64,000 bases of DNA from Myxococcota bacterium (GCA_039030515.1 JBCCEA010000003.1:98759-162758), one strand, 5' to 3'; counted from the first letter of the stretch, positions 62,404 through 64,000 are shown. Notes: a model not told the origin generated them from the sequence alone. Translations and numbers: made by a program.

Positions 62404-62675
62404 GCACGCCACAAAGCCGCTTTCCACCTTGCGCCTCGTCGTCAGGTACTAGATGTACCCTCCTCCTCCTCACTGCGGGGGCGCTGGCTCTATGACGCCC
62501 CTGGACGGCCGCGGGGGTTTACGACAAACGCACGCCATAGAGCCGCTTTCCACCTTGCGCCTCGTCGTCAGGTACTAGGTGTACCCTCCTCCTCCTCACT
62601 GCGGGGGCGCTGGCTTTCTGACGCCCCTGAACGGCCGCGGGGGTTTACGACAAACGCACGCCATAGAGCCGCTTT
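62404..62675. repeat. 126-bp REP-like tandem repeat array (2 full units plus the start of a 3rd, interrupted by IS110)
   Basis: AGCCGCTTT recurs at 62415, 62541 and 62667 (period 126). Units are near-identical, with GGTAC-N5-GTACC and GGGGCG...CGCCCC hairpins. Confidence 0.95.
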
Positions 62676-62687
62676 GTATCTTCGGAG

Positions 62688-62870
62688 GCTGCTATGACTT
62701 GTAGCAACCAGAGGCCGTGGCGGGGAAGTCGAGCCGCTTGGTTCCTGTCCGCAGAGAACGTGAGGAAGCCAGACTCCCCGCCACGGCTTTGGGCTAAGTT
62801 CGAACAGTTGCGTGAACGCCGCTTGGAATCAAGGGGTAGTTCGAATCTGCAAAGCGGAACGAAGGGCCCG
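62688..62870 (+). ncRNA. Predicted IS110 bridge RNA (5' hairpin, target-binding loop, donor-binding loop)
   Basis: Two large stem/internal-loop structures whose loop segments match the target (GAGCCGCT, GGAAGC) and the donor junction (ACAGTTGC, CAAAGC). The ends are approximate. Confidence 0.85.
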
Positions 62871-62893
62871 AGACTCTGGCGGAAGGAGCCAGA

Positions 62894-63850
62894 ATGGACA
62901 CGAGGAACTGGGTCGGAGTGGATGTATCGAAGAAGTGGCTAGATGTGGCGGTGCTGAGTTCAGGGGCGACCCGTCGCTTTGCGCAACCTGAGGAGCTTGA
63001 TGCTTTGGTCGCATGGCTCGTTGAGCTTGAAGCTCACGTGGTGCTGGAATCGACGGGTGGGTATGAGCGCGGGCTTTGTCGTGCACTTCACCAGGCGAAC
63101 ATTGCGTTCACTTGTGTCAACCCAGCCCGAGCCCGATGCTTTCTGCGAAGTGCTGGCAACATGGCGAAAACGGACTCGATCGATGCCAAAGGTCTAGCGC
63201 AGATGGGCAAGGCTCTGGAGCTCACACCCACGCGGATGAGGTCGGAGAGACATGAACAGGTGAAGCGACTGACGAGGCTGCGCAATCCGCTGGTCAAGTC
63301 GAAGGTGACGTACGAAAATCACCTAGAACATGCGGAAGAGGCTGAGGCGGATGTACTAGGTCGCGTGATTCGCACGCTGCACGAAGAGATTGCGGAGGTC
63401 GACCGCCAGCTCTGCCAGGTCATCCAGAACGATGCAGAGATGAAGTCCAAGTCGGCACGAATGCAGTCGATCAAAGGGGTGGGCCCGGTGATTGCGGCAG
63501 GCATGCTGAGCCATGTTGCCGAGTTGGGGCAGATGACGAAGGGGCAAGCCGCCGCGCTGGTTGGACTGGCGCCCTACACGCAAGAAAGCGGGATGAGAAA
63601 AGGCCGACGAAGAATTCGTGGTGGTCGCTCTGCCGCGAGGAACCTTCTGTTTATGGGTGCGTTGGTCGCCTCACAACACAACCCCGAGTTCAAGGCGTGC
63701 TACGCGCGGCTGCAGGCGGCGGGCAAGCCCAAGCGTGTCGCACTGACGGCGCTCGCGCGTAAGCTGGTGGTGACCTTGAACGCGATGCTCAAAGCAGAAC
63801 GCACTTGGGAGCCATCGCGCTTCGCATCATCGGCCAGTACGGGGCCGTGA
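62894..63850 (+). CDS. IS110-family transposase / bridge recombinase
   Basis: RuvC-like DEDD: GVDVSK, LESTG and AKTDSIDA; Tnp domain 'SIKGVGP...[10 protein letters not shown]...[10 protein letters not shown]...ALARKL' with the conserved Ser; SD AAGGAG. Confidence 0.97.
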
Positions 63851-63962
63851 GCCGGTTTTGAGCGCTCACATCTGCGCGAAGGCCAGGGTCGTCTTCGCAT
63901 GCACCGCAGGAGCGCCTATGCCTGGCAAACCTGCGGATGAAGAACATCGAAAGACAGTTGCT

Positions 63963-64000
63963 ACCGCCTTGCGCCTCGTCGTCAGGTACCAACTCGTACC
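63963..64000. repeat. Continuation of the 126-bp repeat unit to the right of IS110
   Basis: CCGCCTTGCGCCTCGTCGTCAGGTACCAACTCGTACC versus the unit CCACCTTGCGCCTCGTCGTCAGGTACTAGATGTACC. Confidence 0.9.

Follow-up and report, generated by a model that had tools for sequence, protein, structure and literature searches.

An intact IS110-group insertion sequence from a Myxococcota bacterium and the putative bridge RNA encoded in its left end

The 64,000-nucleotide (nt) stretch of DNA analyzed here (the window; GCA_039030515.1 JBCCEA010000003.1:98759-162758, from a Myxococcota bacterium) carries, close to its 3' edge, an insertion sequence of the IS110 group that occupies window positions 62674-63962 and is 1289 bp long if one CT core is counted. 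We put at about nine in ten the probability that this is an intact element, probably still mobile, whose left end codes for a bridge RNA some 200 nt long and which recombines in the manner of IS621. The anatomy of the element, the family of its protein, the conservation of the RNA structure, the covariation of the guides with the flanks, several insertion sites and a polymorphism in the population are read directly from the DNA. The host is a 4.08-Mb genome bin of 75 contigs that is 85% complete and has a GC content of 57.4%, and the 3' edge of the window is the end of one of these contigs (C3). An RpoB fragment searched against a protein atlas matched only broad clusters of bacterial proteins.

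The element consists of a non-coding left end of 220 nt, a single intact open reading frame (ORF) and a right end of 112 nt (63851-63962, + strand), which finishes with the left donor ACAGTTG (63954-60) and the right CT core (63961-62). It is inserted in a 126-bp tandem repeat (62404-62673, no strand assigned; 2.2 copies with 95% matches by Tandem Repeats Finder) that resembles repetitive extragenic palindromic (REP) sequences and provides the target. The unoccupied units of this repeat contain AGAGCCGCTTTCCACC and read ...CACGCCATAGAGCCGCTTTCCACCTTGCGCC, and the element breaks the third unit as ...CATAGAGCCG-CT/TTGTATC...ACAGTTG-CT/ACCGCCTTGCGCC, where the slashes mark the borders of the element. 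The left target AGAGCCG (62665-71) and the left CT core (62672-73) together cover 62665-62673 on the + strand, as judged from the sequence itself, an empty paralogue and metagenome contigs that start at 62671/62672. The right target ACCGCCT (63963-63969, + strand) is the remainder of the broken repeat unit, and the last position of the contig is 64000, 38 nt past the element. The runs listed as containing the stretch are four marine metagenome runs of a single study, all DNA and none recorded as RNA; their Logan contigs break at 62671/72 and at 63962/65, and one of the runs assembles the element as a contig of 1289 nt.

The initial annotation had placed a CT at both ends of the element and had predicted the empty target AGAGCCG-CT-ACCGCC; the former is present at the two positions given above, and the latter (AGAGCCGCTACCGCC) is found unoccupied in the same genome, on the minus strand at C25:195 and in the same repeat context. 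Because the reconstructed empty site is a real variant of the repeat, a CT core is sufficient and none longer is needed. A CTT core was considered as an explanation of the "missing T" in the right flanks; it is rejected because the empty GCT-ACCGCC paralogue is present and because REP variants one base shorter bring CCTC into the register of the guide.

The loops of the left end carry GAGCCGCU, which is the left target plus core, and ACAGUUGC, which is the right end of the element. That is, GAGCCGCT is present at 62666-73 and again at 62731-38, ACAGTTGC is present at 62804-11 and again at 63954-61, and the strings GGAAGC and CAAAGC are found at 62764-69 and 62850-55, respectively. All of the strings and stems inventoried in the initial annotation are where it had placed them, in the sequence or in the minimum-free-energy fold, and all four of its guide assignments are upheld, two of them with refinements. 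The left target guide, GAGCCG plus CU (62731-62738, + strand), repeats the top strand of the left target and core exactly and is backed by the flanks of the homologues described below. The right donor guide, CAAAG (62850-62854, + strand; reverse complement CT-TTG), equals the core and the first bases of the left end. The other two assignments can be refined. The right target guide had been read as far as TCC only; its GGAAGC is present, and the register of the homologues extends it to GAGGA plus AG (62762-62768, + strand; reverse complement CT-TCCTC), that is, five nt plus the core. The left donor guide, ACAGUUG plus C (62804-62811, + strand), equals the right end of the element as proposed and matches only the first core base, its second core position being G and not U. 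From these readings, the predicted target of the element is GAGCCG-CT-TCCTC and its predicted donor is ACAGTTG-CT-TTG. The chance expectation for a 64-kb window, with both strands counted, is 1.4 occurrences of ACAGTTGC and 4.33 of GAGCCGCT; per 200 nt of one strand, the values are about 0.002 and about 0.007, and for both to fall in their proper loops the value is about 1e-5.

The guides can be compared with the flanks in homologues, for which we used 80 distant loci (L008-L087) from Dehalococcoidia, Chloroflexota, Gemmatimonadota and other genomes. The covariation set started from 71 plus-strand rows, 23 of which were dropped because the end was not placed by motif; the remaining 48 elements have 39 distinct target loops. 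At least 6 nt of the left flank plus core are found in the 5' side of the element's own loop in 21 of the 39, compared with 40 of 1482 pairings with the loops of other elements. Likewise, the reverse complement of the 3' side of the element's own loop contains the core plus right flank in 29 of the 39, compared with 100 of 1482 non-self pairs. The covariation of loop segments with targets, for which the initial annotation had looked to homologues, is thus present on both sides of the core. In most of the homologous elements, guide and right target agree over 7 nt, and the register of the 3' loop side in the homologues is CGU-N5-AG-C, so that five bases of the right target are read.

The donor side displays a similar pattern. 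The left ends of the homologues begin with CT/TGTATCTT and the right ends finish with AAGACAGTTG-CT; the donor-guide variants ACAGCTG, ACGGTTG and ACGATTG are each repeated at the right end of their own element. The window element has an additional T after the core (CT-TTGTATC, compared with CT-TGTATC in its relatives), and an additional A is present in its right donor guide (GCAAAGC, compared with GCAAGG), so that the extra base of the guide parallels that of the left end.

The initial annotation described the left end as a fold of three parts, a 5' hairpin followed by two loops, and the stems of all three are present in the minimum-free-energy fold of 62674-62893. This fold has an energy of -101.3 kcal/mol (z -4.78), which none of 200 shuffled sequences equals, and the architecture is retained at -87.7 kcal/mol in a constrained fold in which the four guide segments are forced to be unpaired. 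The bridge RNA gene is predicted to extend over 62674-62873 (+ strand), a prediction made from the fold and from covariance-model matches in homologues. Within it, all on the + strand, lie the 5' stem-loop at 62688-62706 (GCUGC/GUAGC or UGCUA/UAGCA; helices 1-2, with compensatory changes in homologues), the target-binding loop at 62714-62787 (closing stem 62714-30 with 62772-87, and an inner hairpin) and the donor-binding loop at 62788-62872 (outer stems and an inner hairpin; helices 5-8, with compensatory changes). In helix 3, whose covariation supports the target-binding loop, 16 of the 16 pairs are changed on both sides among the homologues.

A covariance model (R1) built on the window sequence alone plus its guide-unpaired structure was searched against the 80 homologue loci. 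It matches over its full length, on the + strand and immediately 5' of the recombinase gene, in 58 loci at E<=0.01 and in 70 loci at E<=1. In the R1 alignment, 90.3% of the cells are paired, compared with 61.9% for shuffled sequences and at most 46.9% for slid partners, and 55 of the 56 base pairs have changes on both sides. This alignment was fitted to the model and hence is biased toward the structure; the margin is large.

The recombinase gene (62894-63850, + strand) encodes a protein of 318 amino acids with a DEDD RuvC-like domain and a Tnp domain, as indicated by Pfam, NCBIfam and PDB matches. The Pfam matches are DEDD_Tnp_IS110 (PF01548, 4e-18) and Transposase_20 (PF02371, 2.9e-17), and the protein scores 208.5 bits against NF033542, the NCBIfam equivalog "IS110 family RNA-guided transposase", which has a cut-off of 140. 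Matches to the solved structures of ISCro4 (5.1e-32) and IS621 (6.5e-31) are nearly full length and align the D, E, D, D and S positions, and in an alignment of 21 sequences, D10, E52, D94, D97 and S232 do not vary. Apart from its own 99% variant, the closest protein in a collection of 5.8 billion is 53% identical, and the best matches among species representatives, most of them in Dehalococcoidia bins, have 35-42% identity.

Taken together, these features place the element in the IS110 group. The non-coding left end is longer than the right end (220 versus 112 nt), and its 5' hairpin and two internal loops are kept by compensatory changes, in an alignment that was fitted to the model. Segments of the loops can pair with target and donor on either side of a common core, without further duplication and within the limits of a right target matched at three of five positions and a mismatched second core base in the left donor guide. 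The guides covary with the flanks across orthologues, and the protein has the N-terminal DEDD catalytic residues, the C-terminal Tnp serine and a score above the curated NF033542 cut-off. The IS1111 group is defined, in the available portion of PMC11208160, by a bridge RNA in a long right end and by subterminal inverted repeats of 7-17 bp; in the window element the 112-nt right end is the shorter of the two, and it is the left end that the RNA model matches.

By analogy with IS621, the left end would be transcribed, the RNA would form a complex with the protein and the element would pass through a circular intermediate, with chemistry of the IS621 type. Presumably, a tetramer of the DEDD/Tnp recombinase would hold the bridge RNA, with the target in one loop and the joined ends of the element in the other. 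In the donor-binding loop, ACAGUUG-C would base-pair to the element's right end, and CAAAG to the core together with the opening bases of the left end. The strands would then be exchanged at the common CT core, inserting a circularised copy with no other duplication, and the partners predicted for this reaction are the target GAGCCGCTTCCTC and the donor ACAGTTG-CT-TTGTATC. The bispecific bridge-RNA architecture of the IS621 type that was proposed at the outset, namely its class, its loops and the four guides, is backed by the structure of the homologues and by covariation.

REP-type sites were counted in the genome with the pattern G[GC]CC[CA]A[AT]A[CG]AGC[CTG]GCT, which gave 85 sites with the left-target variants AGCTG (57), AGCCG (18) and AGCGG (10). 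The left target lies inside the 3' arm of an inverted repeat, the arms of which are 12 nt long in the window (62486-97 and 62533-44), and the target for which the element appears to be programmed, GAGCCG-CT-TCCTC, lies in this genome at the 3' edge of a hairpin arm belonging to an abundant REP-like repeat. Since the common variant has one additional base (TTCCT, TACCT, TGCCT), agreement with TCCTC at three or more of the five positions is limited to five of the 85 sites. The right flanks observed next to the element are ACCGC, ACCTC, TCCTC and TGCCT, and four of five match TCCTC at three or more positions. With respect to the expectation in the initial annotation that the flanks of other copies would match the guides, the element right end at the end of contig C58 is flanked by ACCTC (4/5) and a contig of run X4 reads TCCTCCCATGCTCG past the right-hand CT (5/5); the expectation holds less well for the window copy, with 3/5, and for the one flank of five that falls below 3/5.

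These observations bear on an alternative in which the guides are real and the site is chosen largely by the neighboring REP-like hairpin, with loose pairing to the right target. The practical specificity would then be "GCCG-CT at the edge of a REP arm" and not a 13-nt word. All of the sites seen are in REP-like repeats with the left target in the 3' arm of the inverted repeat (12 nt in the window, 15 and 27 nt at the solo left end L004, described below), the right flanks are variable as just listed, and a non-REP AGCCGCTTCCTC site at C20:53567 is empty. In addition, the available part of one preprint reports that ISPpu10 needs a target stem-loop beyond base pairing (bioRxiv 10.64898/2026.03.19.712850), and that of another reports half-match insertion by IS621 (bioRxiv 10.64898/2026.08.31.748434); the imperfect right target of the window copy would, by analogy, fit both the half-match report and a possible hairpin role like that in ISPpu10. 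However, two AGCCGCTTCCTC sites on contig C21 that do have a REP context are empty too, the occupied right flanks are enriched in guide matches over the REP background (4/5 compared with 5/85, as indicated above), and the 7-nt matches of most homologous elements are found at the right target itself. We regard a choice of site dominated by the hairpin as improbable and yet as the most credible of the alternatives.

Several observations weigh against the interpretation of the element as a functional and mobile bridge-RNA system. The right flank of the window copy, ACCGC, matches the right target guide at only three of five positions, and in the guide-flank test the copy's own right-target score is 2, i.e., the core alone; the left donor guide has a G where the core has a T. 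The covariance-model search proposed in the initial annotation succeeded with our own single-sequence model R1, and an Rfam scan of the region gave no family at its gathering score. A joint between the right end and the left end is absent from the contigs of the four metagenome runs, a type of assembly that drops rare forms. No sigma-70-like promoter is found at the computed circle junction or at the integrated left end, where the best hexamer pair matches 7/12 (TTGCTT-18-TATGAC) of the E. coli consensus, which may not be that of the host. Only one complete copy is assembled in the genome, and three unoccupied AGCCGCTTCCTC sites are left in it. The start of contig C4 (L002, C4:1-640) has a 98% identical right half with the same 39-nt right flank as the window, and this shared flank suggests that the partial copy may be a strain allele of the window locus rather than a second site. 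The overlap of the C3 and C4 ORFs contains four synonymous and three nonsynonymous differences and one in-frame 6-nt deletion, which are too few for selection to be demonstrable.

The 6-nt deletion is in the C4 copy. Contigs C3 and C4 probably abut, and the difference between them may represent strain heterogeneity in the bin.

Some of the points above would also be expected if the window copy were a structurally intact relic that is no longer mobile, with the variation arising from strain divergence and assembly noise. The missing circle junction and promoter, the imperfect right target and the single full copy (C4 being perhaps the same locus) all agree with such a relic, as does a DNA search with the whole element in 60 related genomes, which found no match outside its own genome. 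But the ORF is intact and all of its catalytic positions are conserved, and element ends with 97-100% identity are found next to at least three different right flanks and at least three different left flanks. Furthermore, where the genome has only a 65-nt remnant of the element on contig C21, a contig of run X2 joins the same left flank to element positions 1-273 and so enters the element to at least position 273. Because the gene is intact and several junctions are joined to near-identical ends, we consider it quite unlikely that the element is a relic. The proposal that the left-end structure is a leader controlling translation of the recombinase or stability of its mRNA, with the flank matches being coincidental, could draw on a putative ribosome-binding site, GGAAGGAG (62881-62888, + strand), placed by sequence and fold 5 nt before the ATG, within a small hairpin loop that immediately follows the structure, but it would require two 8-mers with a joint chance of about 1e-5 and leaves the guide-flank covariation over 39 distinct loops unexplained, and we regard this already disfavored proposal as very improbable.

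Two further searches concern the distribution of the element. An exact 21-nt word from the right end gave no matches in metagenome contigs of the Joint Genome Institute. A joint in run X2 (depth 4.3) that "skips 1324" was considered as a precise empty site and rejected; it includes 27 other nucleotides and resembles another repeat unit.

The remnant on contig C21 (L004, C21:39617-39690, corresponding to window 62666-62740) is a solo left end of 65 nt that occupies the canonical position within a REP unit. Its sequence is AACAGCCG-CT, followed by element positions 1-65, which end with the guide-coding GAGCCG-CT, and then by TGCCTCCCATGCTCGG (starting TGCCTCC). The C21 site is polymorphic because the X2 contig mentioned above has the same left flank and runs into the element. 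The scar could possibly have arisen by a deletion between the guide-coding DNA and the right end, where the only shared microhomology is G-CT-TG.

Since the guide-coding DNA copies the left target and core, it may itself serve as a half-site. If so, recombination of this half-site with the right end would remove all the remaining element DNA, and the 65-nt scar would be a naturally occurring vestige of half-match recombination. In the contigs of runs X3 and X4, the element also has a C>T change at 62735, by which the left target guide becomes GAGCUG-CU; further variant positions of the element in these contigs are 62701, 62818, 62962 and 63013. Judging by base complementarity, the GAGCUG-CU guide would pair by Watson-Crick rules with the majority AGCTG (57/85 sites) and by wobble with AGCCG. 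The combined idea, an internal half-site that leaves 65-nt scars together with natural retargeting in one step by the 62735 change, seems doubtful to us. Other solo left-end fragments are a piece with element positions 1-17 on contig C5 (L007, C5:104999-105021), which reads GGTGCCG-CT-TTGTATCTTCGGAGG-CT-TCCTCTG, and fragments in Ca. Lucifugimonas marina (L092) and in a Dehalococcoidia genome (L105-L107 in G062) that end at positions ~64, 62, ~30 and ~28. Three of the six known fragments terminate at or beside the left-target-guide segment, and the register is not common to them. As the fragments in the two other genomes share no single register, we do not consider self-targeting via the guide DNA to be established.

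Two other loci in the genome are remnants of a related but different IS110 element. One (L005, C13:34649-34724) is a left end that is 84% identical to that of the window element and has the guide GAGCGG-CU and a 20-nt internal duplication; the other (L006, C17:12970-13049) is a right-end piece that is 79% identical. The first was considered as a cut at the guide and rejected, since the sequence past GAGCGGCT is still element-like and the breakpoint is ambiguous.

A further similarity involves sX15 (RF02234), a small RNA of the Xanthomonadaceae, which aligns end to end with the minus strand of the bridge RNA (window 62702-62880) at 27.2 bits. sX15 also scores on the minus strand in four of 17 homologue loci, with 52.4 bits in L019 (1322-1474), 43.4 in L021, 34.5 in L040 and 33.7 in L012, and all of these matches are below the gathering score of 55 bits. 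In the available part of PMC3300014, sX15 is described as complementary, on a plasmid, to asX7 and as having 10 homologues in Stenotrophomonas maltophilia. Judging from these alignments, the sX15/asX7 locus is probably the left end of an IS110-group element, a link that is not made in the accessible parts of the literature searched on sX15 and Xanthomonas.

The class of mechanism has been known since 2024, and the element is a well-supported, ordinary new case of a bridge recombinase. What it adds is a natural bridge recombinase with a fully readable target and donor program and with a longer right target guide than that of IS621, from a lineage without a close relative (the next protein being 53% identical). 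The occupied right targets, with matches of 3/5, 4/5 and 5/5, also form a small natural set of tolerated mismatches that bears on off-target and half-match work. Knowledge of the mechanism is unchanged by this element, and, considered as a possible tool, it joins thousands of orthologues that are already catalogued. In the available portion of Durrant et al. (2024, PMC11208160), bridge RNAs are predicted in 85.7% of the IS110 elements in ISfinder, and the guide pairings, the CT core and the targeting of REP elements are defined for IS621.

A known system close to the window element is IS621 from Escherichia coli (structures 8wt6-8wt9). The window element is like IS621 in both protein domains and in the catalytic positions and, as far as the available sections on IS621 describe it, in the placement of the RNA in the longer left end, in the 5' hairpin with target- and donor-binding loops, in left guides that equal the top strand and right guides that equal the reverse complement, in the inclusion of the CT core in the pairings and in the REP targets. 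Unlike IS621, to which its protein is only distantly similar (E 6.5e-31), it shows no recognizable junction promoter by the E. coli consensus, with the reservation about the host made above, and its words are GAGCCG-CT-TCCTC for the target and ACAGTTG-CT-TTG for the donor. Its right target guide also reaches 5 nt beyond the core, whereas the right target guide of wild-type IS621 is given, in the same portion of PMC11208160, as 4 bp including the core, with an 11-bp target ATCAGGC-CT-AC.

The transposase of ISCro4 (PDB 9t56) is the best match among solved structures (E 5.1e-32, residues 5-312, catalytic motifs aligned), a comparison made by protein alignment alone. The IS110 clade represented by L008-L087 shares with the window element the RNA architecture, the ends TGTATCTT... 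and ...AAGACAGTTG-CT and the registers of the guides, and differs from it in a protein identity of 35-42% and in the extra T of the left end and extra A of the guide present here. Finally, in ISPpu10 of Pseudomonas putida the target adjoins a stem-loop on its 5' side, according to the available part of the preprint (bioRxiv 10.64898/2026.03.19.712850), and, similarly, the left target of the window element lies within the 3' arm of a REP-like inverted repeat.

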